Shown piece after piece: positions 7,727-60,065 of a stretch of DNA of 64,000 nucleotides (positions within the stretch are counted from its first letter, which is position 1; every line of letters starts with the position of its first letter). The notes beneath the pieces are model-generated. The model worked only from the letters and a program-made list of their open reading frames with translations. It searched no databases and had not been told where the DNA came from. Source of the DNA: Escherichia phage Esco_phi_B-01. Where the stretch lies: the sequence record OP292222.1. One strand, 5' to 3'. Both the position numbers and the translations under genes were made by a program.

Positions 7727-7811
7727 TAATCTATTATACCAGCCAGTTATTGAATGGAACAGACCTAGGACCATTATACACTGTCTGGGACTTAAGCAAT
7801 ATAGGAATCCT

Positions 7812-8402
7812 ATGAACGGTTTATTTAACCAAACTAACACTACCAACTTTATCTTAGAGGTTAGTGACTCAGGAATGACGCAGTCATTCAAATTGAACGT
7901 GCAAGATGTAACACTACCAGGTATCCATATTCCTATCTCAGACGTCCCAGGATCGACCCAGGGCATACATCGTGCTAAACTGCCAGGTTCTACTGTAGAA
8001 TTCGACCCTTTGATTGTGAACTTTCTTGTAGACCGCGAATTGAAATCATGGCTGGATGTTTATAAATGGATGCTATCATTAAACAACTATGTAACACATG
8101 AATCTGAAGCCTGGCATCCTAAAGGTCAGCCTGAGGCTATCACCCTCCACATTCTTGATAACAACAAACAGAAAATCGTAATGAGCATTCATTACTACGG
8201 CGGTTGGCCATCCGACCTTTCAGAGATTCAGTACTCTTATAAAGAAGATTCCGACCCTGCGATAATCGCTACAGCAACCTTCAACTTCAAATCGTTTGCT
8301 GTAGAAATAGATGGTACAATAGTTACAGGTCGTCCACAAATTGATTCGTATGCCGAACAACGTGTGGCTCGTATGTCTATGCATCCATCTATGAGAAAAT
8401 AA
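7812..8402 (+). CDS. 3: tail completion / sheath stabilizer gp3
   Basis: 196 aa ORF between gene 2 and gene 1, as in T4. Confidence 0.65.
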   Translation: MNGLFNQTNTTNFILEVSDSGMTQSFKLNVQDVTLPGIHIPISDVPGSTQGIHRAKLPGSTVEFDPLIVNFLVDRELKSWLDVYKWMLSLNNYVTHESEAWHPKGQPEAITLHILDNNKQKIVMSIHYYGGWPSDLSEIQYSYKEDSDPAIIATATFNFKSFAVEIDGTIVTGRPQIDSYAEQRVARMSMHPSMRK

Positions 8403-9155
8403 TGAAACTAATATCAATTGTAGGAATCAAACGTAGCGGTAAGGATACCGTTGCTAACTATGTAATTGAGAATATGGATTCCGTAAAATTCCAACTCGCT
8501 GGTCCTATTAAAAAGTATCTGGCTGAAGCTTATGAATACATATCTGATGACCCTGTATTCGACCGTAGTTATATGCCTAAACTTGATTTTAACTGTTTTG
8601 AAGGTATCGGTTACGACCGTGAAGAAATCCTTCCTTTAAAATCATATGATGTGGTTGATATTTTTGAAAATGCTATTGTTAAGCTGAATAATATCCTTCC
8701 TATTCCAGGAATTGATGTTCGTACCGCATATCATTATGGTCTTACCCCGGTCCAGTATCTGTCTGAAGAAACAAAAGACCAGCTATTTGAAGTAATAAAT
8801 AAAAATAACAATTGGTCAGTACGTCGTCTCATGCAGACCCTTGGGACTGATATTATTGTTAACCAATTTGATAAGATGTATTGGGTTAAGTTGTTCGCTT
8901 TAGACTATTTTGATAAAATATACTCTGATGCGAAATACTATGTCGTACCTGATGTTCGTCAAACACATGAAATTGATTCGCTCAGAGCGATGGGTGCTAC
9001 GATTATTCATGTAGTTCGCGCTGAAACCGGTCAAGTACAAGACTCGCACATCACTGAAGCGGGTCTACCAATTTTACCTGGTGACGTTGTTGTTGAAAAT
9101 AACGGCACTCTTTCTGAACTATACACTACTATTGATAAATTATTAGGAAATAAAA

Positions 9156-9163
<8 letters not shown>
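8402..9163 (+). CDS. 1: dNMP kinase gp1
   Basis: P-loop GIKRSGKDT; C-terminal block WSVRRLMQTLGTDIIVNQFDKMYWVKLFALDY closely matches T4 gp1. Confidence 0.85.
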
Positions 9164-10062
<899 letters not shown>

Positions 10063-24584: not shown

Positions 24585-24634
24585 GTTTACATCTCCTGTA
24601 GACGTGGTACTATAGACCTATCAACTACAGGAGA
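24585..24634 (+). promoter_or_regulatory. PeSL early promoter cassette
   Basis: GTTTAC 24585-24590, TACTAT 24608-24613; inverted repeat CTCCTGTAG/CTACAGGAG. Confidence 0.7.
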
Positions 24635-24641
24635 TTACAAA

Positions 24642-25100
24642 ATGTCAGAAATTAATTCAGAAGTATTCATCCGCCGCAACAAATTACGTCGTCAGTTCGA
24701 AACCGAATTTCGTGAACTTAACGCGTCCATCAAAAAAGCCGCCATTAAGAGCGGTGTCCCAGCTTTCTTTATTAAGTACTCTAATCACTTGTTGGACCGT
24801 GCTATCCAACGTGAAATTGACGAAAAATATGTTTTCTCTTTGTTCAAGAAGCTCCATAATCATGTTAAAGAAATCCATGAATTTTTAATCCAGGAGCCTC
24901 TTCCTGACGTAGAATCTGAAATTATCCCAGGTAAGGTGTATCGTCCACTGCGTCTCGAGATTACCGATAAAACCTTATGGTTGGGTATGACCGTAGATCG
25001 TAAACATCCTGATAAAGGATATTCATTAAAATGTCGTATGGCATTTGTTAACTCTAAACGTTTAGAAGGTAAAACCAGCACGAAAGTAATCTATCTTTAA
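24642..25100 (+). CDS. hypothetical protein
   Basis: 152 aa. Confidence 0.5.
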   Translation: MSEINSEVFIRRNKLRRQFETEFRELNASIKKAAIKSGVPAFFIKYSNHLLDRAIQREIDEKYVFSLFKKLHNHVKEIHEFLIQEPLPDVESEIIPGKVYRPLRLEITDKTLWLGMTVDRKHPDKGYSLKCRMAFVNSKRLEGKTSTKVIYL

Positions 25101-25112
25101 TAATGAGGTCTC

Positions 25113-25652
25113 ATGAAAAAAGTATTAGCCACTTTACTATTGACAGTTAGTATGTCTGCCTATAGCGTAGAGCCTACTTTCAGTAATGAACAACTCGATA
25201 ATTTACATTATGCGTATGCTTTCGGTGAACAATACCAAAAGTCGGGAAAGTTCAAAGAAAACCCTAATCAAAAAGGATTAGGATATATAATGGCCGGATT
25301 ATTATGGCAGGAATCGTCTGCCGGAATTAATCAAGGTTTAAATAAAGATAAGCACCATGCTTATGGCATGTTCCAAAATTACTTGCCTACGTTAAGAAGT
25401 CGTGTTCAACAGGTAGGTTGGAAGATGTCAGACAAAGAAATAATTCGTATGGTCCAAAAACGACAGAACAGTGCCTCTTGGGCCTACATTGAGCTGTCTT
25501 ATTGGATTAATGTTCACAAAGGTGACCTGAGAAAAGCGATTGCTTCTTATAATGCGGGCTGGAATGTCAAAGCAGGCAGTAAATATGCTTCCGAAGTTCT
25601 AGAAAAGGCCAATTACCTAAAATCTAAAAAGATGTTTGAGGCGGTATATTAA
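25113..25652 (+). CDS. secreted lytic-transglycosylase-like protein (hypothetical)
   Basis: N-terminal signal peptide; WQESSAG and YNAGWN resemble SLT-domain catalytic motifs. Confidence 0.45.
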   Translation: MKKVLATLLLTVSMSAYSVEPTFSNEQLDNLHYAYAFGEQYQKSGKFKENPNQKGLGYIMAGLLWQESSAGINQGLNKDKHHAYGMFQNYLPTLRSRVQQVGWKMSDKEIIRMVQKRQNSASWAYIELSYWINVHKGDLRKAIASYNAGWNVKAGSKYASEVLEKANYLKSKKMFEAVY

Positions 25653-26485: not shown

Positions 26486-26669
26486 CCCTAAAAACAAAGC
26501 GGAAATTATTCGGCACTGGACCGAAACCCGAGTAACTAAATGCCCTATAAAAAGTCAGCATAACACCGATAAATGGTATATTGGTGAATACGTTGAATAT
26601 ACTTTTATAGATAAAAATAAACGTAAACAGCATGTAGAAGAATATTGCTTAAAGGTGCAATGGTTATGA
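26457..26669 (+). CDS. hypothetical protein
   Basis: 70 aa. Confidence 0.4.
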   Translation: MKAHYPHPFDPKNKAEIIRHWTETRVTKCPIKSQHNTDKWYIGEYVEYTFIDKNKRKQHVEEYCLKVQWL

Positions 26670-26872
26670 GCCAAGCCCGAATTCTTAAAACGGCCAAATG
26701 TGAAAAATGCGAATGGCCAGTAATAGCCGCTTTATGCAACGATGAAATGGAATGTGAATTTGATTACTGGTGGTACTGTTCTAATAAAGGATGTTCTAAT
26801 CATAAGGGTGAAGGTTTTCATTCCGGTTATTGCGAACATCCTAAATTTGTGCGATATGGGGAACCCAAATGA
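26666..26872 (+). CDS. Cys-rich small protein (possible zinc binding)
   Basis: CEKCEWP...CNDEMECEF...CSNKGCSNH...CEHP; ATGA overlap. Confidence 0.45.
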   Translation: MSQARILKTAKCEKCEWPVIAALCNDEMECEFDYWWYCSNKGCSNHKGEGFHSGYCEHPKFVRYGEPK

Positions 26873-27042
26873 GTTTGAGTAAAGAACAGAAAGACAAATT
26901 GTTTGAGCTTATCCATGAGCTCATGGAACTTAATATAGAATGTGAATTTGATAACTCTCTGGACTGGGATTGGAGAGGTGACGAAGAGGATGAGTTTTCT
27001 AAAAAGGAAAACGAATTAATAGCTTATGTGAATACGCTTTAA
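26869..27042 (+). CDS. hypothetical small acidic protein
   Basis: 57 aa ORF below the track cutoff; ATGA overlap with upstream stop. Confidence 0.35.
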   Translation: MSLSKEQKDKLFELIHELMELNIECEFDNSLDWDWRGDEEDEFSKKENELIAYVNTL

Positions 27043-27051
27043 GAAGGTAAT

Positions 27052-27624
27052 ATGGCTCAACTTTATTTTCATTATGCGGCAATGAACTCAGGTAAGACCG
27101 CTTCATTGCTAACGGCCGCTCATAACTACAAAGAACGCGGTATGGGCGTGCTCCTTTTAAAGCCTGCGATAGACAATAGAGAATCAAGCCATACCATTTC
27201 GTCTCGTATAGGGATTAGTCAAGAGGCTAATGCAGTGACTCCGGATATGGACCTATACGAGTTCTATCGTTGGGCTGAATCTCAAAAAGATATCCACTGT
27301 GTGTTTGTGGATGAAGCCCAGTTCTTAGAACCTGCACAGATAAAACAACTGGCAAAGATAGTAGACAATTATAATGTTCCGGTTATGTGTTACGGGCTAA
27401 GAACTGATTTTCAGGGTAAACTGTTTCCTGGTTCTGCTGAATTACTCGCTACGGCAGATAAACTCGTTGAGTACAAAGGTGTGTGCCATTGCGGCCGTAA
27501 AGCTACTATGACTGCTAGGGTCCAAGATGGTGTCGCAATTAAGGACGGAGCCCAAGTTTCTATAGGTGGCAACGATTCTTACGTGTCATTGTGCAGGAAG
27601 CACTGGATAGAAATAACGAGTTGA
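27052..27624 (+). CDS. tk: thymidine kinase
   Basis: MAQLYFHYAAMNSGKTASLL P-loop; C-terminal CHCGRKAT...SLCRKHW zinc site typical of type II thymidine kinases. Confidence 0.9.
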   Translation: MAQLYFHYAAMNSGKTASLLTAAHNYKERGMGVLLLKPAIDNRESSHTISSRIGISQEANAVTPDMDLYEFYRWAESQKDIHCVFVDEAQFLEPAQIKQLAKIVDNYNVPVMCYGLRTDFQGKLFPGSAELLATADKLVEYKGVCHCGRKATMTARVQDGVAIKDGAQVSIGGNDSYVSLCRKHWIEITS

Positions 27625-27631
27625 GGGTACT

Positions 27632-27910
27632 ATGGACCTAAATTCAAAGATTTTAATTCTAGCGTTCGCTGTGGCCATCTCTTATATTGTTCTTTCGCCC
27701 ATCATGGATGATGCGGCTTACAAAAGAGAGATAGAAGTTGTAGCAGCGACGTATAATGCTAATAATAAAGAATGTCCTAATAAAAATGGAGTGGATTTAA
27801 TTAAAGCACATTATATGCTTTCTATTACCTCGCCTATACAGAGGAATTGGGTTGAATATAATTTTAACGACGTGTTCTATTCTTATTGTCGTAAGCTTAA
27901 AAAGCTATAA
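27632..27910 (+). CDS. hypothetical membrane-anchored protein
   Basis: N-terminal TM helix; 92 aa. Confidence 0.45.
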   Translation: MDLNSKILILAFAVAISYIVLSPIMDDAAYKREIEVVAATYNANNKECPNKNGVDLIKAHYMLSITSPIQRNWVEYNFNDVFYSYCRKLKKL

Positions 27911-28003: not shown

Positions 28004-28297
28004 ATGGGTATTTTCCGTACAGTGGCTTGTATCCTTATGATTGGATGTTTAAGCCCGACATCTTCACTAGCAAACAAATCCGACCCTAAATTGATGGACG
28101 CCTTTGCTAGTAGTGCGATGCCAGTTTATGCGCAAATGAGTAAACCTAGTGTAAAGGCCTCCGAAGACTACTGGGCTTATGTAACTGCTTCTTGGAAAAT
28201 TTCAAATTGCAATACAATAGAGTCTTGCTCGATTGAAGGTCGGGCTATCGGAGAACGATACGCTAAACTAATGAAGGTAGATGATGAAATTCAATGA
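28004..28297 (+). CDS. rI: lysis inhibition regulator rI-like
   Basis: 97 aa, signal-anchor N-terminus, conserved Cys pair; same size as T4 RI; next to tk. Confidence 0.6.
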   Translation: MGIFRTVACILMIGCLSPTSSLANKSDPKLMDAFASSAMPVYAQMSKPSVKASEDYWAYVTASWKISNCNTIESCSIEGRAIGERYAKLMKVDDEIQ

Positions 28298-28667
28298 TTT
28301 CGTACTTAGTCGAGGGACTGAAGTAGATTCTTATATTGGTTGGCTGTTGGTTTCTTTAGCCTATTTTAAGTCAGCCCATTTGGAAACCAAAAGCTATGCA
28401 AGACACAAAGCATATGACTTCTATTATACAGAAGTTCAAGGACCACTAGACCAGTTCAGTGAACAGTATTTAGGATTTAGTGGCAAAGAATATAAAGCAT
28501 CACTACCATCTGCTTCAGAACTGCCTAAAGACCCCATAGATTTTCTTGATGAACTTATTAAAGCGTCTGATAAAATCTACAAAAATCTTCCTAAGGCCAT
28601 CCAATCGACTTTGGACGACATCACTGGTGTCTTTTACCAGACTAAGTATTTGTTAACGTTAGAATAA
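28281..28667 (+). CDS. hypothetical protein
   Basis: 128 aa overlapping rI stop. Confidence 0.5.
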   Translation: MMKFNDFVLSRGTEVDSYIGWLLVSLAYFKSAHLETKSYARHKAYDFYYTEVQGPLDQFSEQYLGFSGKEYKASLPSASELPKDPIDFLDELIKASDKIYKNLPKAIQSTLDDITGVFYQTKYLLTLE

Positions 28668-28672
28668 TCAAA

Positions 28673-28699
28673 GGTCTCACTTCGGTGGGACCTTTTTTC
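28673..28699 (+). terminator. rho-independent terminator
   Basis: GGTCTCAC-TTCG-GTGGGACC plus TTTTTT. Confidence 0.7.
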
Positions 28700-28707
28700 G
28701 TTTTAGT

Positions 28708-28760
28708 GTTTACATCCTCTAGGAACGTGATACTATAGACCTATCAACTAATGAGGAGAA
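28708..28760 (+). promoter_or_regulatory. PeSL early promoter cassette
   Basis: GTTTAC 28708-28713, TACTAT 28731-28736, CTATCAACTAATGAGGAG. Confidence 0.65.
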
Positions 28761-28764
28761 AGTT

Positions 28765-28947
28765 ATGTTAACTACCGAACAGATTGAGAAAATTATTAAA
28801 CTCGCCCAGCATATTGAAAACGCATCCAATGACCTAGCTGTTGAATATTGTGAAGGCTATTCATATTCCGGAATAGAGCAGTGTAAACGAGATTTGGCTA
28901 ACTCTAAAGCAGCCTTGGTTGAGTATCTTAATGAGTTGAAAGCATAA
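28765..28947 (+). CDS. hypothetical small protein
   Basis: 60 aa after PeSL. Confidence 0.45.
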   Translation: MLTTEQIEKIIKLAQHIENASNDLAVEYCEGYSYSGIEQCKRDLANSKAALVEYLNELKA

Positions 28948-29204
28948 TGGCTGTTGGATTTGCTAAGGACGGAGCTGAACAGCTCGAAATGGAAGCGGTC
29001 GTTCAGGCCGCTATAGTACACGCCCGTAAGCAAGTAGCAGTTGAACGTGAATCGGCTAAATATTGTTTTGATTGTGATGAAGAGATTCCTGAAGCACGAC
29101 GTCAAGCTATCAAAGGTGTGATATATTGTATAGGTTGTCAGTCAATGCATGATGAAATTTTTAAACGTGAGCCACGTAACTGTTGGCACAGGAGCATGAG
29201 ATGA
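28947..29204 (+). CDS. TraR/DksA-family C4 zinc finger protein
   Basis: CFDCDEEIPEARRQAIKGVIYCIGCQ: C-x2-C-x17-C-x2-C with the conserved IPEARR segment. Confidence 0.6.
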   Translation: MAVGFAKDGAEQLEMEAVVQAAIVHARKQVAVERESAKYCFDCDEEIPEARRQAIKGVIYCIGCQSMHDEIFKREPRNCWHRSMR

Positions 29205-29295
29205 TTTACTATCTTGAACCTTGGGCTTGGCTTACAATGCTTATTGGTCCAGTTTTAATGGGTTTATTCTTTTCATGGTTAGCGAGGAAACTGTA

Positions 29296-29493
29296 ATGTT
29301 ATACGACCCGAGTGGTAATTCTGAAGATGGTATTATTGTCCTTTTGGCAGATGTTGAAGAGTCTGACGATGACATCTTTGTTAAAGATTGGGAAGAAAAA
29401 GGCGGAATCACGCTCCAACAAGAAAATGATATGATTTGTCTGAATGCAAGCCAAGTCGAAGAACTTTATAGTATTTTAAAACATAACCGTTGA
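29296..29493 (+). CDS. hypothetical acidic protein
   Basis: ATG after GAGGAAACTGTA. Confidence 0.45.
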   Translation: MLYDPSGNSEDGIIVLLADVEESDDDIFVKDWEEKGGITLQQENDMICLNASQVEELYSILKHNR

Positions 29494-29503
29494 GGAACAG
29501 AAA

Positions 29504-30064
29504 ATGATTATTGAAACAACTGAATTGTTTGGTGAACTGACCGCTGAAGTAGTTGATAATGCAATTGTGCTTTCACAAGAAGACGATAAAATCGTACTAA
29601 CTATCCAAGATATTAAACCACTTTATGATTTAAAGGTTTTGGATAAAGATGGGTATCTTGATGGACGCCATAGAGCATCGTTTGATATTAACGACGATGT
29701 ATGGGCCCAGATTTATAAAAATGAAGACGGATTTAATATCGAAACTGATACGGAATGTCTAAGCATTAGGAATTCTAGTAATTTCTTTAAATGTATTTTT
29801 AAACTGTTCCAGGAAGAATGCAAGCCTGAAGTTGAATGGAAAGTTCCAGGTCAAGATGCGGTGATTCGTTCTAGTGAAACATTTGAAGGTGATGAAGAAG
29901 AAATGGATTATGATACCGAACTAACCGTGTATCAACACCAGGGCCGTGATTTGCTATCCTTGGTCCAAAGACACGACGGTGAAAGTGAATTGGTATTTAC
30001 TAAAGACGAGCTAAAAGTTTTAGTCTCTTATCTGAACTCTGTTATCCCAACTATGAACTCTTAA
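29504..30064 (+). CDS. hypothetical acidic protein
   Basis: 186 aa; RBS GAGGAACAGAAA upstream. Confidence 0.5.
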   Translation: MIIETTELFGELTAEVVDNAIVLSQEDDKIVLTIQDIKPLYDLKVLDKDGYLDGRHRASFDINDDVWAQIYKNEDGFNIETDTECLSIRNSSNFFKCIFKLFQEECKPEVEWKVPGQDAVIRSSETFEGDEEEMDYDTELTVYQHQGRDLLSLVQRHDGESELVFTKDELKVLVSYLNSVIPTMNS

Positions 30065-43817: not shown

Positions 43818-44435
43818 ATGAAATACATCACATACCTGACAATATATTCCGGGACTAAGCTTCCACCGTTTTATATAGGGTCCACCACTTTAGAGAAGCA
43901 TTTGAATGGATACCACGGAAGTGTCCTTTCTAAAGCGTATAAAGAAATCTATAAAAACGAGCTTTTAGAGCATCCTGAACTATTTGACTCATGTATTGTA
44001 AGTGAACATCCCACAAGAGAAGAGGCTTTAGAAGCTGAAAGAATGTACCAGTTAAGAACTGATGCAGCTCAAAATCCTTTATTCTTTAATAGGGCTATTG
44101 CCGCCCCTAAAGGGTTCTTCGGGCTTTCGCTACCTAAAGAGCATCACCCTCTTTACGGCTCTCATAATGCCAAAGGGTATATTCATTCCTATAATCCTGT
44201 TACATTAGAACAGACCTTTGCACCTACGGTCCCTGAAGGATATGTAGAAGGTCGTTCTCCTAATTATAAAGCATCTAGTCACAATAAGGGCAGGAAGTGG
44301 TATAATAACGGAATAGAACATAAACTGATTAATCCGTCTAATATTCCTGATGGATGGGTCAAAGGCAAACTTCCGGGCTCGGCTTCTAAAGCCGCCTCTA
44401 AAATGTGGGAACGAATACGTAATGAAAATTCTTAA
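43818..44435 (+). CDS. GIY-YIG homing endonuclease (Seg-like)
   Basis: N-terminal KYITYLT...FYIGST (GIY-YIG-type), conserved R and E downstream; basic C-terminal DNA-binding-like region; sits where T4 has alpha-gt. Confidence 0.6.
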   Translation: MKYITYLTIYSGTKLPPFYIGSTTLEKHLNGYHGSVLSKAYKEIYKNELLEHPELFDSCIVSEHPTREEALEAERMYQLRTDAAQNPLFFNRAIAAPKGFFGLSLPKEHHPLYGSHNAKGYIHSYNPVTLEQTFAPTVPEGYVEGRSPNYKASSHNKGRKWYNNGIEHKLINPSNIPDGWVKGKLPGSASKAASKMWERIRNENS

Positions 44436-50802: not shown

Positions 50803-53514
50803 ATGCAAGAATTCTATTTGACAGTCGAACAAATCGGTGATAATATTCTCGAACGTTACATCGATAAAAATGGTAACGAACGTAGTCGTGAAGTTCCTTA
50901 CAAGCCTACAATGTTTATGCATGCCAACCCAGAGCAAGCCGTAAAATATATTGACATCTACGGTAAGGGCTGTGTTAAGAAAGAATTCGATTCAATGCGC
51001 GATGCTTCTCAGTGGATGAAGCGAATGGACGATATGGGTCTCGAAGCCCTTGGTATGGACGACTACAAATTAGCCTATTTGTCTGATACCTATCGTAAAG
51101 AAATCAAGTATGATTCTTCCAAGATTCGTATTGCTAACTTCGACATCGAGGTAACATCTCCTGATGGATTCCCTGAACCTGCCCAGGCTAAACATCCTAT
51201 CGATGCCATTACTCACTACGACTCGATTGACGATAAATTCTATGTATTCGACCTTTTAGTTTCACCTTATGGTACGGTCGAAGAGTGGTCGATTAAAATC
51301 GCTGAGAAACTCCAAGACGAAGGTGGTGACGAAGTTCCACAAGAAATCATTGACAAAATCGTTTATCTTCCGTTTAATTCTGAAGAAGAAATGATGCTTG
51401 AGTATCTGAATTTCTGGCAACAGAAAACTCCTGTGATTTTGACTGGATGGAACGTTGAATCATTTGACGTGCCATACGTTTATAACCGTCTGAAAAATCT
51501 GTTTGGTGAGAACACTGCTAAGCGATTAAGCCCGCATCGTAAGACTCGTGTTAAAGTTATCGAGAATATGTACGGTGTTCGTGAAATTATTACACTGTTC
51601 GGTATTTCTGTTCTGGATTATATCGACCTTTATAAAAAATTCAGCTTTACTAACCAGCCTTCTTATTCTCTGGATTATGTTTCTGAATATGAATTGAAAG
51701 TAGGTAAGTTGAAATATGATGGTCCTATCTCCAAGTTACGTGAGACAAACCACCAACGATATATTTCCTATAACATTATCGACGTATATCGTGTTGTGCA
51801 GATTGATATGAAACGCCAGTTCATTCTTCTTAGTCTGGACATGGGTTATTATGCTAAGATGCAGATTCAGTCAGTGTTCAGTCCAATTAAGACTTGGGAC
51901 GCTATTATCTTTAATAGCCTTAAAGAACAGGGTAAAGTTATTCCTCAGGCCAAATCGCATGCGGTTCAACCTTATCCAGGTGCTTTCGTTAAGGAACCTA
52001 TTCCTAACGCGTACAAATATGTAATGAGTTTCGACCTTACATCTCTGTACCCAAGTATCATTCGACAAGTGAATATAAGCCCAGAGACCATCGCAGGCAC
52101 ATTCGCCAACGCACCGATACATGAATATATTGCCGGAACTGCTCCGCGTCCTAGCGACACCTACAGTTGCTCTCCTAACGGCATGATGTACTATAAAGAC
52201 CGTGATGGTGTGATTCCTACAGAAATCACGAAGGTGTTCTTACAACGTAAAGAACATAAAGGTTATATGCTCGCAGCTCAACGTAATGGTGAGTTAATTA
52301 AAGAAGCATTAGAAAATCCTAATCCATCTGTTGATAGTCCACTGGATATCGATTATCGTTTCGACTTCTCTGACGAAATCAAAGCCCAGATTAAAAAATT
52401 GTCAGCATCTTCTTTAAAAGAAATGTTGTTCAAAGCCGAACGTACTGAAGTCGCAGGTATGACTGCTCAGATTAACCGTAAGTTGCTTATCAACTCCCTT
52501 TATGGTGCACTTGGTAACGTATGGTTCCGTTACTATGACCTCAGGAACGCAACTGCAATCACATTGTTTGGTCAAATGGCCCTCCAATGGATTGAACGTA
52601 AGGTTAACGAATATCTGAATAGCGTATGTAAGACCGAAAACCAGAAGTTCGTGCTCTATGGTGATACCGACTCCATTTATGTTAAGGCCGATGCAATCAT
52701 CAATAAAGTAGGCGAAGATAAATTCCGTGATACTAACCACTGGGTTGACTTCTTAGATAAATTTGCACGTGAACGTATGGAACCAGCTATTGATGCAGGC
52801 TTCCGTGAGATGTGTGAATACATGAACAATAAACAGCACTTGATGTTCATGGACCGAGAAGCTATCGCAGGTCCTCCACTTGGTTCTAAAGGTCTTGGTG
52901 GATTCTGGACAGGCAAGAAACGTTATGCACTGAACGTTTGGGACATGGAAGGTACTCGTTATGCCGAACCACACTTGAAAATCATGGGTCTCGAAACTCA
53001 GAAATCAAGTACACCTAAAGCGGTTCAGAAAGCACTGAAAGAATGTATCCGTCGTATGCTTCAAGAAGGCGAGGCCTCTTTGCAAGAGTATTTCAAACAG
53101 TTTAATAAGGAATTTAACGAATTAGACTATGTAAGCATTGCTGCAGTATCCAGTGCTAACAACATCGAGAAATATAATGAAGGTGGTTTCCCTGGTTCTA
53201 AATGCCCGTATCACATCAAAGGTTGCTTAGCTTACATGCGTGCTTCTGCTGGTGATTTGACTATGCCTCGTATCGTTGATGGTGAAAAGGTATATGTACT
53301 GCCACTTAAAGAAGGCAACCCGTTCGGTGAAGCTTGTATGGCATGGCCGTCAGGTATTGAACTTCCGATTCAGATTCGTGACCAAGTCCTCCGTTGGATG
53401 GACTACAACGTACTGTTCCAAAAGACCTTTATCAAACCCCTGACCGGTTTTACTGAGTCTGCTAAAATCGACTACGAGAAAAAAGCAACATTATTTGACA
53501 TGTTTGACTTTTAA
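50803..53514 (+). CDS. 43: DNA polymerase gp43 (family B)
   Basis: 903 aa from MQEFYLTVEQIGDN; exonuclease motif FDIEV, polymerase motifs SLYPSI and YGDTDS; N-terminus resembles RB69 pol. Confidence 0.9.
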   Translation: MQEFYLTVEQIGDNILERYIDKNGNERSREVPYKPTMFMHANPEQAVKYIDIYGKGCVKKEFDSMRDASQWMKRMDDMGLEALGMDDYKLAYLSDTYRKEIKYDSSKIRIANFDIEVTSPDGFPEPAQAKHPIDAITHYDSIDDKFYVFDLLVSPYGTVEEWSIKIAEKLQDEGGDEVPQEIIDKIVYLPFNSEEEMMLEYLNFWQQKTPVILTGWNVESFDVPYVYNRLKNLFGENTAKRLSPHRKTRVKVIENMYGVREIITLFGISVLDYIDLYKKFSFTNQPSYSLDYVSEYELKVGKLKYDGPISKLRETNHQRYISYNIIDVYRVVQIDMKRQFILLSLDMGYYAKMQIQSVFSPIKTWDAIIFNSLKEQGKVIPQAKSHAVQPYPGAFVKEPIPNAYKYVMSFDLTSLYPSIIRQVNISPETIAGTFANAPIHEYIAGTAPRPSDTYSCSPNGMMYYKDRDGVIPTEITKVFLQRKEHKGYMLAAQRNGELIKEALENPNPSVDSPLDIDYRFDFSDEIKAQIKKLSASSLKEMLFKAERTEVAGMTAQINRKLLINSLYGALGNVWFRYYDLRNATAITLFGQMALQWIERKVNEYLNSVCKTENQKFVLYGDTDSIYVKADAIINKVGEDKFRDTNHWVDFLDKFARERMEPAIDAGFREMCEYMNNKQHLMFMDREAIAGPPLGSKGLGGFWTGKKRYALNVWDMEGTRYAEPHLKIMGLETQKSSTPKAVQKALKECIRRMLQEGEASLQEYFKQFNKEFNELDYVSIAAVSSANNIEKYNEGGFPGSKCPYHIKGCLAYMRASAGDLTMPRIVDGEKVYVLPLKEGNPFGEACMAWPSGIELPIQIRDQVLRWMDYNVLFQKTFIKPLTGFTESAKIDYEKKATLFDMFDF

Positions 53515-53576: not shown

Positions 53577-53813
53577 ATGGAAGCTTTAATCGTTAGTGCT
53601 GGTGTTTTAGGATTCGGTTCTCTGGCTATTATGTTCATTGGTTACTTTTTACCATGGATTCTAGCTCTTTTGCGAGGCACCCGTAGCAATGTCGGAATCT
53701 TCTTCCTTAATCTCTTGTTAGGATGGACGATGATTGGTTGGGTAGTGGCTTTAATCTGGGCCATCGTCGCTGAACGTAAATCAAACGCACAAATCATTAT
53801 CGTTAAACAATGA
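53577..53813 (+). CDS. imm: superinfection immunity protein Imm-like
   Basis: 78 aa, two TM helices, LLGWTMIGWVVALIWA motif; immediately after gene 43 as in T4. Confidence 0.65.
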   Translation: MEALIVSAGVLGFGSLAIMFIGYFLPWILALLRGTRSNVGIFFLNLLLGWTMIGWVVALIWAIVAERKSNAQIIIVKQ

Positions 53814-53947
53814 AGATAATTATTTTATTTCTTATAATGACTGCCTTTACCGTTTATTGGGCAGTGGCAATTCCTCCAATGATTCCAACATTAATCATAG
53901 GATGGATTATTCTTATAGCACAAATTAAGTATAACTGTTTTAATTGA
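53810..53947 (+). CDS. small hydrophobic membrane peptide
   Basis: 45 aa ORF below the track cutoff, ATGA overlap with imm stop, almost entirely hydrophobic. Confidence 0.35.
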   Translation: MKIIILFLIMTAFTVYWAVAIPPMIPTLIIGWIILIAQIKYNCFN

Positions 53948-53954
53948 GGATATT

Positions 53955-54455
53955 ATGAAAAAGTTAATTATCGCAATGAGTATGCTCCTATCAGGTTGCG
54001 CGGTCCAATACGGTGATGCAGTTTCGGCTGATGAAGTTGGTAAAGCTCGTATTGCAGCTGAACAGAAACAATTCGACGGCGAAATGAAATTCCGTGCCGG
54101 TTCTGGACTTGTGTATACCCGAGCTAATAATCAATGTGGTAATAACTGTGCAAAATATGCTCAAAGGGAAATCGAATTCCAACGTGAACAAGAGTCTAAG
54201 CGTGAAGAGGTACTAGCCAAACACCAGGCAGAAATGAAGCGCCAAGATGATTTGTACAAAAAGCAGAAACTGTATTCTATGTGTGTAAACCATATCAATC
54301 TACAGATTTCTGTCCATGAGGCTCGTTATTACGAAATGCTCGAAACCGAGAGCTTCGATAAAGCTCGTGATTATAAGAAACAAATCAACAAGCTTAAGAC
54401 CAAAGTGCCTGCTGCAGTAGAACAGTGCATGGAATACGGTAAAGATAAGATTTAA
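53955..54455 (+). CDS. lipoprotein (hypothetical)
   Basis: signal peptide with lipobox LLSGC; charged coiled-coil mature part. Confidence 0.55.
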   Translation: MKKLIIAMSMLLSGCAVQYGDAVSADEVGKARIAAEQKQFDGEMKFRAGSGLVYTRANNQCGNNCAKYAQREIEFQREQESKREEVLAKHQAEMKRQDDLYKKQKLYSMCVNHINLQISVHEARYYEMLETESFDKARDYKKQINKLKTKVPAAVEQCMEYGKDKI

Positions 54456-54515
54456 GCAATAGAAATTTATTAAAAATAGTGTATAATGTACCTACATTCA
54501 CTTGAGGAACAGATA

Positions 54516-56189
54516 ATGAAAAAGGTTGTTATTTTAGGCGCAGGTCTTGGCTCACGGTTGTATCCAATTACTAACGAAATCCCGAAGGTATTGGTTAACT
54601 ATAAACAACATACGGTATTAAAGCATTTGTATGATTTGTATAGTAACCAATCAGATGAAATTATTCTGGTTATTCACAGCAAATTTAACGACCTCGTTAA
54701 AGGCTATATTAAATCCATTAACATGATTACTGGTGATAAGCCTAAATTCACTATTCGTAACGTTGATGTTGCTAATGGTTCAGCTCATGCAATCGATTGC
54801 ATTGCCGAAGATATCATTGGCCATAATGTCCTGTTTAACTGGTGTGACATCATTCCTATCGGTCATAAAGTTGAATGGGGTAACGACTACTGTTATACCT
54901 ATGGAACTGACTGTCGTTTTACATTTGAAGAACCGTACTTACGTGAAATTGGTACTGGTGGCGGTGTAGTTGGTTTGTATCAGGTAGCCAATTGGACAGG
55001 TTTCGACCGTTCTAATTATGGTGAAGACCTTGCTGATAACCTGGATTCAATGGTCTATTTGACCGAACGTAAACTGGATTTTGTAGTTGATGTCGGTGAC
55101 AAATTGAAACTGGCTAAGGCCCATGAAGAATCTGAAATTAACCGTGAATTTAATAAATTAGAATTCACCGAGAATCTGGCTATTAAAGTACCAACTAACG
55201 AATTAGGTAAAGAAATTCAATCTAAAGAAATCAATTGGTATAATTCTATTGATTCTGAATTCGTTCCTAGCATTGTAGACTTTTCTCCAGGCGAATTCAT
55301 TAAAATGGAACGTATCTTTGGTCGAACCATGGCAGATGCCTACCGGTTTATGTCCAAAGAAACTAAAGTCCTCATGGTTTATAAGGTCATTAGTGCATTA
55401 CGTTCATTTGGTGGAACTATTGATAACCCGTCCGATGAGCAATGGTATTCCGATGTTAAGAAAGAAGTATTGGACAAGGTCCTTATTCGTAATGCTTCTA
55501 TTGCTGGATTGATTGAAGGCTTTGCTCCACAGGGCATTACCCATGTTAACGATTTCAAAGTAGGCGACCCTGAAAAACTTCTTCGCCATGCACTAGAAAT
55601 TCTGTCTGAACATAAAGAACCGTACCAACTTATTCATGGCGACCCGCACTACAGTAATATTATGCTGTCGGACGAAGGTGATATTAAAATCATCGACCCA
55701 CGTGGTTATTTCGGTAATAGTTCTAAAGGCCCTGCGATTTATGATGAAGCTAAGGTGCTTTATTCTATCGATGGCTATGACAAATTTAACTCAGACCCTC
55801 TATGGGGCGGATTAACTCGTAACGGAACTCGTGTATTCGTTGATATCGAAAAGATTATGCCTTTAGACGATATCCCTATGTGCACATTTAAGCACAAGCT
55901 CTGGATTGCTGTTATTTGGATGGCTCTGGCAGGTTACTTTAAGAATAACCCTCTGAAAGCTCTAGGTGCTTATTATAACGGTTTGTACCAACTGAGTGTG
56001 CTGCTGAAGCGGCATCCTCGTAAGCGTAAGCTTATTACGGGTGAATTTGTCGATGAAGTTCGTGACCCTATTACGGCTCAAATTATTACTCGTTGTCCTG
56101 ATAAGTGGGTTTTGCTTGACCAGGAAACTGGTGTAAAATATAAACCTACAGGTTCTACTGAACTCCACAAACAATGGAAGAAAATTTAA
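54516..56189 (+). CDS. bifunctional nucleotidyltransferase / small-molecule kinase fusion
   Basis: N-terminus KVVILGAGLGSRLYPITNEIPKVLV fits sugar-phosphate (LicC/MurU/RmlA-type) nucleotidyltransferases; C-terminus LIHGDPHYSNIM...IIDPRG fits the APH/choline-kinase-like catalytic loop. Confidence 0.6.
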   Translation: MKKVVILGAGLGSRLYPITNEIPKVLVNYKQHTVLKHLYDLYSNQSDEIILVIHSKFNDLVKGYIKSINMITGDKPKFTIRNVDVANGSAHAIDCIAEDIIGHNVLFNWCDIIPIGHKVEWGNDYCYTYGTDCRFTFEEPYLREIGTGGGVVGLYQVANWTGFDRSNYGEDLADNLDSMVYLTERKLDFVVDVGDKLKLAKAHEESEINREFNKLEFTENLAIKVPTNELGKEIQSKEINWYNSIDSEFVPSIVDFSPGEFIKMERIFGRTMADAYRFMSKETKVLMVYKVISALRSFGGTIDNPSDEQWYSDVKKEVLDKVLIRNASIAGLIEGFAPQGITHVNDFKVGDPEKLLRHALEILSEHKEPYQLIHGDPHYSNIMLSDEGDIKIIDPRGYFGNSSKGPAIYDEAKVLYSIDGYDKFNSDPLWGGLTRNGTRVFVDIEKIMPLDDIPMCTFKHKLWIAVIWMALAGYFKNNPLKALGAYYNGLYQLSVLLKRHPRKRKLITGEFVDEVRDPITAQIITRCPDKWVLLDQETGVKYKPTGSTELHKQWKKI

Positions 56190-56572
56190 TGTCGTATCGA
56201 GTAGAAAATAAGCCACATTTATGTTTTGATATCGATAACACAATCACGATTTGGAACCATGACCGTGATTATGAGAACTTTAAACCGGACACCGAAATGG
56301 TGTCCATGATTAATAAGCTTTATGATGAAGGGTACGAGATTACATTGTTCACCGCGCGTGGCATGACTTCATGTGGCCCAGGTCGAATCTTGGTTGAAGT
56401 AGTTCCTGCCTTGGTTAAGAACCTTGAAAAAATTGGATTGAAATATCACAATTTGCTTACACATAAGCCGAGTTATACTTTTATCATCGATGACCGAGCA
56501 ATCCGTCCTGACCACTTTAAAGAAATGGTTCGTGAAGGAACTCTTGATGGTTATAAGGCCTATCATCCATGA
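56189..56572 (+). CDS. HAD-superfamily phosphatase-like protein (alternative start 56174)
   Basis: motif I CFDIDNTIT (DxDxT), motif II ITLFTARG, motif IV FIIDDRA. Confidence 0.55.
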   Translation: MSYRVENKPHLCFDIDNTITIWNHDRDYENFKPDTEMVSMINKLYDEGYEITLFTARGMTSCGPGRILVEVVPALVKNLEKIGLKYHNLLTHKPSYTFIIDDRAIRPDHFKEMVREGTLDGYKAYHP

Positions 56573-57105
56573 ATCCAAAAATCATTGTTATAGACGGCCC
56601 GGATAATTCCGGGAAGTCCACTTTAATTAAAAATCTGTTATCCAATAAGAAATACCGCCTTATTGATTTTCCTAAAAAGATTAATGGCAAGTGTATTTCA
56701 TTAGGAACTGATAACGATAAGGCTTTAGTTGAAACTCTGTATAAGTTTTTAGACCCTAATTTCGTTTATATCCTTGACCGTGGTTATCCAAGTAATATTG
56801 TTTACTCAGGATTCCTTCGTGGTGAAATGGACCCTTATGTAGAACTGGAAGATTGGAAAGGGTTTAAATCTGAATTTAACGTTATCGAGGTTATTTTAAC
56901 TCGCAACCCATTAGACGAAGACTTCGAAGACGACCTTATTAAATTAACCGAAGATGAGTTCAACCTAACTATCCGGCAATACGAAACATGTTTTGAAAAC
57001 GTGTTTAAAATCTTAAATCATGACGGCCATAATAATTTGCTTAATGTTGATATGGTAGAATTAAAACGTCTGAACGAATATATTGAAAATAAGGTGAATA
57101 AATGA
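56569..57105 (+). CDS. P-loop nucleotide kinase-like protein (thymidylate-kinase-like)
   Basis: IVIDGPDNSGKST P-loop at the N-terminus; 178 aa. Confidence 0.5.
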   Translation: MNPKIIVIDGPDNSGKSTLIKNLLSNKKYRLIDFPKKINGKCISLGTDNDKALVETLYKFLDPNFVYILDRGYPSNIVYSGFLRGEMDPYVELEDWKGFKSEFNVIEVILTRNPLDEDFEDDLIKLTEDEFNLTIRQYETCFENVFKILNHDGHNNLLNVDMVELKRLNEYIENKVNK

Positions 57106-57800
57106 AACACATTACCGCTGTTAGTTTTGAAAATGCATTTAAACAAATGAACGAAGAAATCCTGGAAGCTCCACAGTTTGCAGTTGATTCTCGTATCGGA
57201 CGTTGTTATGAAATTGGTTCTGCTTCGGTAGAAGTACTGGATGCAAGCACCTATAAATTCACCGACCCACGTATTAATCGTATTAGTTATGAATATGCCG
57301 AATCCTTTTGGAAATTTATGATTTCTGGTGGTACTGACGCTGCCGAAGCATTTAAGGAATACCCTAATGTTGCTAAGTTCATTGATAAGCCGAAAAGTGA
57401 CGTATTGCCTGCAAACTTCAACACTTTCTATGGACCTCGAATTGTGGCCCAACTCCCAGCCCTACTTAAAGAGCTTAAAGAAAAGGCTAACTCGCGAAGA
57501 GTTGTGTTCCAGATTCTCCAAGAACAAGACCAAGCCCTCCTTGATTCTGACGAATCCTTAGAATATCCGTGTACCGATTCGGTAACGTATTATATTCGTG
57601 ACGGACGTTTGTATGCACACACCCATATGCGTTCACAGAACTGCGCTGTTGTTATGCAGCTGGATTTCTATCTGCAGGGTAAACTGATGGCATTTATTGC
57701 TGAACAGTGTGGTGTCGGTTTAGGTACATATTCCCACACCATGGTAAGTGCACACGTGTTTGAACGCGATTTTGACTACGTCCGAGGTTTCCTGAAATGA
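57102..57800 (+). CDS. 42: dCMP hydroxymethylase gp42
   Basis: catalytic region EYPCTDSVTYYIRDGRLYAHTHMRSQNCAVV aligns with T4 gp42 DFMCTNTVQYLIRDKKINAVVNMRSNDVVFG. Confidence 0.8.
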   Translation: MKHITAVSFENAFKQMNEEILEAPQFAVDSRIGRCYEIGSASVEVLDASTYKFTDPRINRISYEYAESFWKFMISGGTDAAEAFKEYPNVAKFIDKPKSDVLPANFNTFYGPRIVAQLPALLKELKEKANSRRVVFQILQEQDQALLDSDESLEYPCTDSVTYYIRDGRLYAHTHMRSQNCAVVMQLDFYLQGKLMAFIAEQCGVGLGTYSHTMVSAHVFERDFDYVRGFLK

Positions 57801-58690
57801 GTTTGTTTATCGTTCCTATTTTCAGTATGCGTAGTTACGAAACAGGTGAATATGCCGTCCTTAAGGACGGCAATTTTCAACTCCATTTAAATCGTGCTCG
57901 TCCAGGTGATTATCTGGCTTATCCTAGAAATTCGAGCGATATCAAAGAATGCATTGAATTATTCCCGGAACTGAATTTCGTACCACTTTGGTATAAAGAA
58001 AATGCTTATGAAACCCGTAAACATTTCTGGTCTGAAAATGAGTTTGTAGTCGATTCACTAATCGAATACTACGATTGCTCAGGACTGGTAACTGATATCA
58101 CCGGTTATGATGGTGCTCACACTGTACAATTCAACTTTAATATCACAATGGACCCTGAAGTTCCTCGTTATTATATCGACGAGTTCATTGATATTGATGT
58201 GGCTTCAGTTGAACGTTCACTTTATACTACAGTCCTGAATCAATGCCAGAAAGACGTCCTGGTGTCACGAGGTGCATCCTCTGATAAGATTTTTGTAGAC
58301 CAAAAGGTAATTAATCCTGCAGTAATTGAGCGTTACTCTGAAGGTCTAGCGCCTATTAAAATTGATGGTATTTTCCATCCATTCCGTATTTCGGATAAGT
58401 GCTATCAATTCGAAAGAGTTGTAGACCAAGCTGCCGCTGAAGGTGCTCGTCTTTATATCACTGACCCGAATGATTCATTTAAGCGTGAAGACTATCGTCC
58501 TGATGTAGAGATTATTAAATTCAAACCGAGTAAGGTTGAATATTATCAAATTCTGAAATCAAGACCACATATCATTTATCATGAGAACCCAGGTTTAGTA
58601 TTCCATCCTGGTCTGGCTGAATTCATTTATTTCGGTGCCAATATTCATTCTGAATACGAAATGCCACGTTATGAGGACGTAGTATGCTAG
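57797..58690 (+). CDS. hypothetical protein at the beta-gt position (candidate DNA glycosyltransferase)
   Basis: 297 aa between gene 42 and uvsX, where T4 has beta-glucosyltransferase; no recognisable similarity to T4 beta-gt by eye. Confidence 0.4.
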   Translation: MSLFIVPIFSMRSYETGEYAVLKDGNFQLHLNRARPGDYLAYPRNSSDIKECIELFPELNFVPLWYKENAYETRKHFWSENEFVVDSLIEYYDCSGLVTDITGYDGAHTVQFNFNITMDPEVPRYYIDEFIDIDVASVERSLYTTVLNQCQKDVLVSRGASSDKIFVDQKVINPAVIERYSEGLAPIKIDGIFHPFRISDKCYQFERVVDQAAAEGARLYITDPNDSFKREDYRPDVEIIKFKPSKVEYYQILKSRPHIIYHENPGLVFHPGLAEFIYFGANIHSEYEMPRYEDVVC

Positions 58691-58892
58691 GTCCTCTATT
58701 GCTTTTTATAGGTTTGTTATTATTCTCTTTCGGAGCCTTGCTATTACTAGTGTGGCTCGAGAAACGAGAAGTTCGGAAGATAGTCGATAAGGCTATCAAC
58801 CGAGGAATTAAGTAATGCTGTAGCTGTGAAGTGATATAATTACCCTATCTTAAAACGTGAGAAAAATATAATGATGCCTATGGAAAAATATA

Positions 58893-60065
58893 ATGTCTGA
58901 TTTAAAATCCCGTTTGATTAAAGCTTCTACTTCTAAAATGACTGCCGACCTGACCAAATCTAAATTGTTTAATGGTCGTGACGAAGTTCCTACTCGTATT
59001 CCTATGCTTAATATTGCATTGGGTGGTGCGTTGAATGCAGGCTTACAATCAGGTTTGACAATCTTTGCTGCACCGTCTAAACACTTTAAAACGTTGTTTG
59101 GATTAACTATGGTTGCGGCATATATGAAGAAATATCCAGACGCAATTTGCTTGTTCTATGACTCTGAATTCGGTGCTTCAGAATCTTATTTCCGTTCAAT
59201 GGGTGTTGACCTGGAACGTGTGGTTCATACGCCAATCCAGTCAGTCGAACAACTGAAGGTTGACATGACCAACCAATTAGAAGAAATTACTCGTGGCGAA
59301 AAGGTTATTATCTTTATCGACTCCATCGGTAACACTGCTTCTAAGAAAGAAACCGAAGATGCTTTGAACGAGAAAGTTGTAGGTGATATGACTCGTGCTA
59401 AGTCTCTGAAATCTCTGTTCCGTATCGTAACACCTTATCTGACTATCAAGGATATTCCTTGCGTAGCAATTAACCATACGGCTATGGAAATTGGTGGAAT
59501 GTATCCTAAAGAGATTATGGGTGGCGGTACTGGTATTCTGTACTCTGCTTCTACCGTATTCTTTATCTCTAAACGTCAGGTTAAAGATGGTACCGAGCTC
59601 ACTGGTTATGACTTCACCCTGAAGGCCGAAAAATCTCGTACTGTTAAAGAGAAATCAACGTTCCCAATTACTGTGAACTTTGAAGGTGGTATCGACCCAT
59701 TTAGTGGTCTGCTCGAAATGGCTACTGATATTGGCTTTGTTGTGAAACCTAAAGCTGGTTGGTATAATCGTGCATTCCTTGACGAAACCACGGGTGAAAT
59801 GGTTCAAGAAGAAAAATCATGGCGTGCTAAAGCTACCGATTGTGTCGAGTTCTGGGGACCGCTGTTTAAACATGCTCCATTCCGTGAAGCAATCGAGAAT
59901 AAGTATAAGCTCGGTGCAATTAATTCTATTAAAGAAGTCGATGATGCGGTGAACGACCTTATTAACTCTCGTGTCTCTAAGAACGTTGCAGTTAAATTGA
60001 GTGGCGACACTCAAAGCGCAGCTGATATCGAAAACGATTTAGAAGAGATGGATTTAGATGACTGA
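58893..60065 (+). CDS. uvsX: recombinase UvsX (RecA-like)
   Basis: 390 aa; MSDLKSRLIKASTSK..., Walker A, EKSWRAKATDCVEFWGPLFKH closely match T4 UvsX. Confidence 0.9.
   Translation: MSDLKSRLIKASTSKMTADLTKSKLFNGRDEVPTRIPMLNIALGGALNAGLQSGLTIFAAPSKHFKTLFGLTMVAAYMKKYPDAICLFYDSEFGASESYFRSMGVDLERVVHTPIQSVEQLKVDMTNQLEEITRGEKVIIFIDSIGNTASKKETEDALNEKVVGDMTRAKSLKSLFRIVTPYLTIKDIPCVAINHTAMEIGGMYPKEIMGGGTGILYSASTVFFISKRQVKDGTELTGYDFTLKAEKSRTVKEKSTFPITVNFEGGIDPFSGLLEMATDIGFVVKPKAGWYNRAFLDETTGEMVQEEKSWRAKATDCVEFWGPLFKHAPFREAIENKYKLGAINSIKEVDDAVNDLINSRVSKNVAVKLSGDTQSAADIENDLEEMDLDD

Follow-up and report, generated by a model that had tools for sequence, protein, structure and literature searches.

The region between the DNA polymerase gene and uvsX of Escherichia phage Esco_phi_B-01 (record OP292222.1, of which a stretch of 64,000 nucleotides (nt), hereafter the window, was analysed) raises the question of which modified base this phage carries and of how that base is made. 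Five genes on the + strand (54516-58690) occupy there the slot held in T4 by gene 42 and the beta-glucosyltransferase gene (beta-gt). An initial annotation, made from the letters alone, had seen in them a module producing an activated donor for the transfer of a non-glucose group onto 5-hydroxymethylcytosine (hmC). Our analysis indicated that the block is, with a probability of about 80%, the Dhakavirus copy of the known cluster responsible for DNA hypermodification to arabinosyl-5-hydroxycytosine (5ara-hC). The initial annotation had correctly recognised a known system and was wrong in substance on one point, the acceptor base. The present work supplied the orthology, folds and signature residues, and the literature on homologs the enzyme activities; from these we infer the identity of the sugar, the single arabinosylation, the host origin of arabinose-5-phosphate and the substrate of one kinase.

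The block region is 98.5% identical to that of the Dhakavirus Escherichia phage JS98 and is present in 242 phage records. The tight coupling of the genes ahead of the supposed gene 42, already pointed out, was indeed observed, with a 16-nt overlap at the first junction, then an ATGA overlap at each of the next three. Among the 62 nucleotide differences that separate the five genes from those of JS98, 57 are synonymous, and the ratio of non-synonymous to synonymous polymorphism (pN/pS) ranges from 0 to 0.17. The five genes are real and under strong purifying selection. Comparison with RB69 (Mosigvirus) showed that all five are orthologous to the core genes of its arabinosylation cluster (gp45-gp55), namely gp53:52, gp51, gp45, gp48 and gp47:46. 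The order differs in one respect, as the kinase gene lies here between the phosphatase and hydroxylase genes, and after the transferase gene in RB69. In line with this, Dhakaviruses are named among the lineages with conserved synteny around the synthesis of 5-hydroxydeoxycytidine (5hodC) (PMC13326640).

The nature of the acceptor base is indicated by the fourth gene (57102-57800, + strand, 232 amino acids (aa)), labelled gene 42, or deoxycytidine monophosphate (dCMP) hydroxymethylase, in the initial annotation, as were the ThyA homologs of JS98 and RB69 in older reviews. Its product has the ThyA fold (Pfam PF00303, 49.7 bits for a cut-off of 24.3). Its identity reaches 79.7% with RB69 gp48 and 72% with TH1_062 of Shewanella phage Thanatos, versus 24.5% over 159 aa with T4 gp42. 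Among PDB sequences, it matched 9iqu/9iqc/9ir2 with E = 2e-125 and T4 gp42 (1b49) with E = 1.5e-4. The protein was aligned with RB69 gp48, T4 gp42, the thymidylate synthase of JS98 and ThyA of E. coli, the last of which served for residue numbering. Cys157 corresponds to the catalytic C146 of ThyA, Glu154 to L143E and Asp188 to the dCMP-specifying N177D. Asn180, in the motif MRSQNCAV, corresponds to D169N, whereas T4 gp42 and both true thymidylate synthases have Asp at this position. These signature residues are shared by the RB69 hydroxylase. The change D169N was described as diagnostic of 5-hydroxy-dCMP (5hodCMP) synthases, 5hodC being the product shown for nine additional homologs with this change, that of Thanatos among them (PMC13326640). 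With O2 and a flavin, RB69 gp48 and DLP3 gp80 turn dCMP into 5hodCMP (Lee et al., 2026, PMC13326640), and the C5 hydroxylation of dCMP is flavin- and O2-dependent in both RB69 and HY126, as far as the latter is summarised there. On these grounds of residues and identity, the 232-aa protein is a predicted flavin-dependent dCMP C5-hydroxylase of the ThyA superfamily, and not gp42. Since it carries D169N and falls in the 5hodCMP synthase branch, the acceptor base of this phage is predicted to be 5-hydroxycytosine (5hoC) rather than hmC, with the sugar ether-linked to it. The presence of hmC in the DNA no longer follows, because that deduction required a gp42 ortholog.

It may still be argued that the ThyA homolog is a gp42-type hydroxymethylase, and that arabinosyl-hmC is built from a free sugar through a salvage route similar to LicC/LicA. 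Both N177D and L143E occur in gp42 as well, and the older literature speaks of gene 42 alleles in JS98 and RB69 and of arabinosyl-hmC as the RB69 base. We consider this very improbable. The protein is far nearer to an experimentally verified hydroxylase than to gp42, which keeps the Asp that is replaced here, and no other gp42-like gene was found in the JS98-type genome. Moreover, the RB69 base itself was revised, the arabinose of its DNA being ether-linked to 5-hydroxycytosine and not to hmC (PMC13326640), so that the arabinosyl-hmC that the initial annotation had cited for RB69-type phages no longer stands.

Activation of the sugar may be ascribed to the first gene (54516-56189, + strand, 557 aa), here called NTkin, whose ATG at 54516 is preceded at 7 nt by a GAGGA Shine-Dalgarno sequence. 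The proposed fusion of a nucleotidyltransferase with an APH-type kinase was borne out by two Pfam matches above the cut-offs, NTP_transferase at aa 3-100 (33.9 bits, cut-off 21.2) and APH at aa 346-417 (26.0 bits, cut-off 23.2), and the motifs quoted in its favour were located. The nucleotidyltransferase domain extends over aa 1-215 or so (nt 54516-55160), with the G-x-G-x-R...K motif GAGLGSRLYPITNEIPKVLV at aa 8-27. The APH-fold anomeric kinase domain covers approximately aa 214-557 (nt 55155-56186), with the catalytic loop H-x-D-x4-N (HGDPHYSNIM, aa 374-383) and the metal-binding Asp (IIDPRG, aa 392-397). NTkin is colinear with RB69 gp53 (aa 1-215, 44% identity) followed by gp52 (aa 214-557, 41%), has 45% identity overall, and matches PHROG 4098 (E = 5e-268). 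Its NCBIfam matches to MurU and methylthioribose (MTR) kinase were weak and all below the family thresholds, and a PDB sequence search with NTkin returned no close solved structure. We also observed that, in the RB69 reference genome, the transferase (gp46/gp47, 24597-25497) and the fusion (gp52/gp53, 28094-29780) are each split into two open reading frames (ORFs) by sequencing errors; the unbroken 297-aa and 557-aa genes of the window are colinear with the respective pairs.

NTkin is accordingly best described as a putative bifunctional sugar-activating enzyme of the RB69 gp53:52 and HY126 AfhE type, whose substrates would be those known from its homologs. AfhE acts on D-arabinose-5-phosphate as a kinase and is also a uridine diphosphate (UDP)-arabinose pyrophosphorylase, according to the summary of He et al. 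(2026) given in PMC13326640. The combination of an APH-fold anomeric kinase with a sugar-1-phosphate nucleotidyltransferase recalls MurU/AmgK, LicC/LicA and 5-methylthioribose kinase. It differs from MurU/AmgK and LicC/LicA in that the domains are fused here, and in that the substrate of the homologs is a sugar 5-phosphate, which needs a HAD 5-phosphatase. The salvage of a free sugar in the manner of LicC/LicA, as first proposed, does not agree with this scheme, in which, as the homologs are summarised in PMC13326640, C1 of arabinose-5-phosphate is phosphorylated before the HAD step and the formation of UDP-arabinofuranose.

The presence of a phosphatase in the block is explained by this very point, because a kinase substrate that is a sugar 5-phosphate requires removal of the 5-phosphate. 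The second gene (56174-56572, + strand, 132 aa) indeed encodes the small HAD phosphatase announced by the initial annotation, with all four motifs (FDIDNTIT, LFTARG, HKP and IIDDRA) and PDB matches to 9iqw (E = 8e-53) and 1xpj (E = 5e-12). The protein is 61% identical to RB69 gp51 and matches PHROG 1238; a Pfam search with it gave no match, and its match to the capsule-biosynthesis phosphatase family TIGR01689 was below threshold. No Shine-Dalgarno sequence precedes the start at 56174. Another ATG, at 56189, is preceded at 7 nt by GGAAGA, overlaps the NTkin stop codon (TAATG) and fits the N-terminus of RB69 gp51, so that the true start is probably this one and the product 127 aa long instead of 132 aa. 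We predict that the protein is an arabinofuranose-1,5-bisphosphate 5-phosphatase of the RB69 gp51 and HY126 AfhF type. AfhF is an Mg-dependent phosphatase which converts arabinofuranose-1,5-bisphosphate into arabinofuranose-1-phosphate (He et al., 2026, as summarised in PMC13326640).

As regards HY126, the accessions 9iqu/9iqc and 9iqw matched by the hydroxylase and the phosphatase adjoin 9iqz, which is entitled "phage HY126 glycosyltransferase", and this adjacency suggests that they are the HY126 Afh proteins. Within what is summarised of the Afh system, the architecture of the AfhE-type fusion is shared with the block and a gene-by-gene equivalence seems likely, but the 366-aa gp3-type transferase of HY126 (9iqz) is absent here.

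The third gene (56569-57105, + strand, 178 aa) had been described as a thymidylate-kinase-like P-loop kinase taking part in donor synthesis. The first part of this description holds for the P-loop, the D-R-x motif and the thymidylate kinase (TMK) fold of the predicted model, which was built on a shallow alignment, the word-indexed homolog search having given 9 proteins. It does not extend to the curated families, whose matches are below the cut-offs and cover the P-loop only (Pfam PF02223, 15.6 bits for a cut-off of 27; TIGR00041, 18.3 for 83.25). The protein has a TMK-like fold but is not classed among the dTMP kinases. Its identity with RB69 gp45 is about 38-40%. Rhizobium phage RL38J1, which uses hexoses, likewise has a gene for such a kinase alongside its 5hodCMP synthase (Table 1 of PMC13326640), and for this reason the kinase probably belongs to the nucleotide (acceptor) branch rather than to donor synthesis, modified dCMP being its presumed substrate. 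Another enzyme of the same pathway is encoded outside the block, at 8402-9163 (+ strand), namely a T4 gp1-type deoxynucleoside monophosphate (dNMP) kinase (PHROG 139, deoxynucleoside monophosphate kinase, E = 2e-58), the RB69 ortholog of which, gp159, converts 5hodCMP into 5hodCDP (PMC13326640).

The fifth gene (57797-58690, + strand, 297 aa) directly follows the hydroxylase gene. Its product adopts a GT-B/GT4-like fold with two Rossmann domains, which answers the structural question that the initial annotation had put, and BLAST revealed no similarity to T4 beta-gt, as had been remarked. It is about 65-70% identical to RB69 gp47:46 (70% and 65% for the two parts, 67.5% overall); PDB sequence searches with NTkin and with this protein gave remote matches or none. 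The gp47:46-type enzyme was proposed as the first transferase, the gp3-type enzyme adding a second arabinose (PMC13326640). The 297-aa protein is thus a predicted base-proximal (first) arabinosyltransferase, and the JS98-type genome encodes no other transferase of its type.

Taken together, these assignments outline a pathway with two branches. In the nucleotide branch, the gp56 dCTPase (encoded in the JS98-type genome outside the window, 91% identity) would supply dCMP, which the ThyA homolog would hydroxylate at C5. The resulting 5hodCMP would be phosphorylated by the gp1-type kinase, and probably also by the 178-aa kinase, and the derived triphosphate would be incorporated into DNA in place of C. 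In the donor branch, the C-terminal APH-fold domain of NTkin would phosphorylate C1 of D-arabinose-5-phosphate, the HAD phosphatase would strip the 5-phosphate to leave arabinofuranose-1-phosphate, and the N-terminal domain of NTkin would convert the latter, with UTP, into UDP-arabinofuranose. The GT-B enzyme would finally attach arabinose to the 5-hydroxyl. Because a single transferase is encoded, the product is expected to be mono-arabinosyl-5-hydroxycytosine. The logic is that of T4, where a ThyA-superfamily enzyme (gp42) likewise provides a C5-oxygenated dCMP, a dNMP kinase and a dCTPase take part, and GT-B enzymes (alpha- and beta-glucosyltransferase) use a UDP-sugar. However, T4 relies on folate-dependent hydroxymethylation, whereas systems of the present type rely on a flavin- and O2-dependent hydroxylation with the sugar ether-linked directly to the ring; unlike in T4, moreover, the phage has to make the donor itself, and the transferase has no BLAST-detectable similarity to beta-gt. 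The earlier idea of a phage-made donor for a non-glucose group is thus supported by orthology to the RB69 arabinosylation cluster, but its acceptor, hmC, is not.

A role in the synthesis of capsule or lipopolysaccharide sugars, to which database labels ("capsule biosynthesis protein", "GlmU" and "phosphoheptose isomerase", for example) might point, was considered and rejected because of the tight coupling of these genes to the hydroxylase gene and of their orthology to a DNA-modification cluster.

The gene set is smaller than that of RB69. A tblastn search (E < 1) of the window and of the remaining 106 kb of JS98 found no homologs of RB69 gp55 (arabinose-5-phosphate isomerase), gp3 (second transferase), gp50 (U32-like) or gp49, nor of T4 beta-gt or true gp42. 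The complete RB69-type di-arabinosylating gene set is not present in the JS98-type genome, and the Dhakavirus configuration is the smallest that we encountered. Arabinose-5-phosphate would have to come from the host, since the phage lacks the isomerase. E. coli itself produces this compound via KdsD/GutQ. In the phage collection, 367 records contain the NTkin fusion gene and 276 the isomerase gene; about 51 records of Dhakavirus, 25 of Klebsiella phages and some of Proteus phages are without the latter. As the minimal Dhakavirus set makes clear, the second transferase, the U32-like gene and the phage isomerase are accessories that can be dispensed with.

Several points weigh against the assignment of the block to 5ara-hC synthesis, two of which concern the transfer step. 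Single transferases were without activity on 5hoC-DNA in vitro, no transfer from UDP-arabinofuranose to 5hoC being reported there for the RB69 and DLP3 orthologs either, and the authors left undecided whether DNA or the mononucleotide receives the first sugar (PMC13326640). Glycosylation might then precede replication, the transferase acting on 5hodCMP, the 178-aa kinase phosphorylating the bulky arabinosyl-5hodCMP, which would be beyond the reach of the gp1-type kinase, and the polymerase incorporating the glycosylated nucleotide. Such a route would account for the inactivity on DNA and for the adjacency and translational coupling of the hydroxylase, transferase and kinase genes, and would give a reason for a second kinase in a phage that already encodes a gp1-type enzyme handling 5hodCMP. 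Adjacency is also seen for gene 42 and beta-gt of T4, however, although beta-gt acts on DNA, and the later arabinoses were added on DNA in vitro. Pre-replicative transfer is, in our opinion, quite improbable.

The other points concern the sugar. In a literature search, no Dhakavirus was met whose DNA had been analysed chemically, and the verified arabinosyl-5hoC phages traced there belong to isomerase-encoding groups (Mosigvirus, Serratia and Acinetobacter phages). NTkin and the 178-aa kinase are 40-45% identical to their counterparts in the characterised RB69 lineage, despite 84% identity for the polymerase. Furthermore, Thanatos, the one relative lacking the isomerase for which mass spectrometry has been published, was reported to carry 5hoC with a deoxypentose, with a nucleotide at a mass-to-charge ratio (m/z) of 438.094 and fragments at 244.09 and 128.045 (PMC12838424). 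The value of 438.094 corresponds to 5hodCMP plus a deoxypentose, 16 Da below the arabinosyl form; Lee et al. treated Thanatos as mono-arabinosylated, at odds with the reported mass (PMC13326640). The Thanatos locus (TH1_060-TH1_065) resembles the present one in its single transferase, its lack of isomerase, and the presence of a lipoprotein (non-homologous) and an Imm-like membrane protein between polymerase and NTkin, and formation of 5hodC by its hydroxylase homolog has been demonstrated. It differs in having a U32-like gene, in an NTkin closer to that of RB69 (56%) than to that of the window (47%), and in the adduct reported.

These observations could mean that the isomerase-less modules of Dhakavirus and Marfavirus activate another host pentose phosphate, such as ribose-5-phosphate or a deoxypentose-5-phosphate, and yield a 5-O-glycosyl-hydroxycytosine other than the arabinosyl form. 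We hold this to be unlikely. The isomerase was indeed found in none of the JS98-type genome, Marfavirus F48 and Thanatos, and is rarer than the NTkin fusion among phages; the Thanatos spectra were interpreted as a deoxypentose; NTkin is much nearer to F48 (81.5%) than to RB69; and 5hoC is paired with hexoses in RL38J1. By contrast, the transferase, as the enzyme that has to recognise the donor sugar, is as near to RB69 (67.5%) as to F48 (69.6%), and the host makes arabinose-5-phosphate itself. As to NTkin, its identity with RB69-type lineages (45-50%) is barely below that found among those lineages (52-56%), and the NTkin of Thanatos is of the RB69 type (56%), so that loss of the isomerase does not follow the divergent NTkin clade. 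The divergence of this clade was considered as a sign of a different substrate and was weakened by these identity matrices and by the RB69-type NTkin of Thanatos. If a different sugar were nevertheless used, common coliphages, some of them therapy candidates, would carry an undescribed 5-O-glycosyl-hydroxycytosine, possibly related to the Thanatos "deoxypentose".

With arabinose retained as the expected sugar, the block belongs to a pathway that is already known, and not to the unassigned biosynthetic side of the modification that the initial annotation had seen in it. The UDP-arabinose route was proposed in 2018 for the module between gp43 and uvsX, with mention of the homolog in Dhakavirus IME08 (PMC6024577); its biochemistry and structures followed in 2025-2026, and PMC13326640 describes what the homologs of gp52:53, gp51 and gp55 do in it. 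The annotation of Bas47 already reads "putative enzyme involved in UDP-arabinose biosynthesis". Annotations of JS98-type genomes, however, still read "hypothetical protein", "phosphoheptose isomerase" or "thymidylate kinase", and the acceptor base should read 5-hydroxycytosine. With arabinosylated 5-hydroxycytosine, the DNA of a phage is shielded against CRISPR nucleases and restriction enzymes; type IV systems sense the modified base. Since Dhakaviruses serve in phage-therapy work, it is of some practical use to know which chemistry their DNA really has.

The history of the module differs from that of its surroundings. The flanking polymerase (50803-53514) and uvsX (58893-60065) genes are closest to RB69 (84% and 91%, respectively), in agreement with the RB69-like polymerase first noted (83.7% identity to RB69 gp43, versus 69.3% to that of Klebsiella phage vB_Kpn_F48, a Marfavirus). 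F48, more distant in its backbone (polymerase 69%), is yet the nearest relative of the module: identities with F48 and RB69, respectively, are 81.5% and 45% for NTkin, 83% and 61% for the HAD phosphatase, 78% and 40% for the 178-aa kinase, 87% and 80% for the hydroxylase, and 69.6% and 67.5% for the transferase. F48 shares the order NTkin, phosphatase, kinase, hydroxylase and transferase and likewise lacks the isomerase, but retains U32-like and gp49-like genes between kinase and hydroxylase. As the segment 54516-57800 is F48-like (78-87%, versus 40-80% for RB69) inside RB69-like flanks, the module appears to have undergone horizontal exchange, and its genes, from NTkin to the hydroxylase, differ in evolutionary history from the replication genes on either side.

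The U32-peptidase-like gene is shared by RB69 (gp50, 26492-27661), F48 (8675-9835) and Thanatos (TH1_065, 6927-8063), with 79% identity between RB69 and Thanatos, and is missing from the JS98-type genome. RlhA and TrhP, required in E. coli for the 5-hydroxycytidine and 5-hydroxyuridine of RNA, are members of the U32 family. The gene may be linked to pyrimidine C5 hydroxylation.

Between the end of the polymerase gene (53514) and the start of uvsX (58893), eight ORFs lie on the + strand, including the five-gene block. In the corresponding imm-uvsX interval of T4, gene 42 and beta-gt are present, as had been stated, but they are not alone, segA being found there too. Upstream of the block, imm (53577-53813, +) is followed by an ORF for a 45-aa membrane protein (53810-53947, +), which overlaps the imm stop codon (ATGA) and has homologs in RB69 (orf054c) and in T4 (the "42-imm intercistronic region"); it is probably a conserved small protein, under-annotated across T4-like phages. 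Next comes a gene for a predicted lipoprotein of 166 aa (53955-54455, +; lipobox LSGC; phrog_1754, unknown function), which occupies the slot of the arabinose-5-phosphate isomerase in RB69. A weak match to a sigma-70-like promoter is located at 54460-54487 (+; TAGAAA, 16-nt spacer, TATAAT; 10/12 matches); a promoter and terminator scan of the region gave nothing above shuffle expectation, this site included. Downstream, a single-transmembrane ORF of 43 aa (MLGPLLLFIGLLLFSFGALLLLVWLEKREVRKIVDKAINRGIK; 58684-58815, +), the start of which overlaps the transferase stop codon, is 100% conserved in JS98, where it bears no annotation; no homolog was found at the RB69, F48 and Thanatos loci.

Lastly, the homing endonuclease that had been noticed between genes 55 and 47 was confirmed as a 205-aa ORF (43818-44435, +) upstream of and overlapping gene 47, with a match to phrog_10820 (E = 2e-92) and a weak GIY-YIG Pfam match. 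The equivalent position in JS98 holds only a-gt.2 and 47.1, and JS98 was recorded as devoid of homing endonucleases in a 2010 review. From this sequence comparison, the gene looks like a recent mobile insertion.

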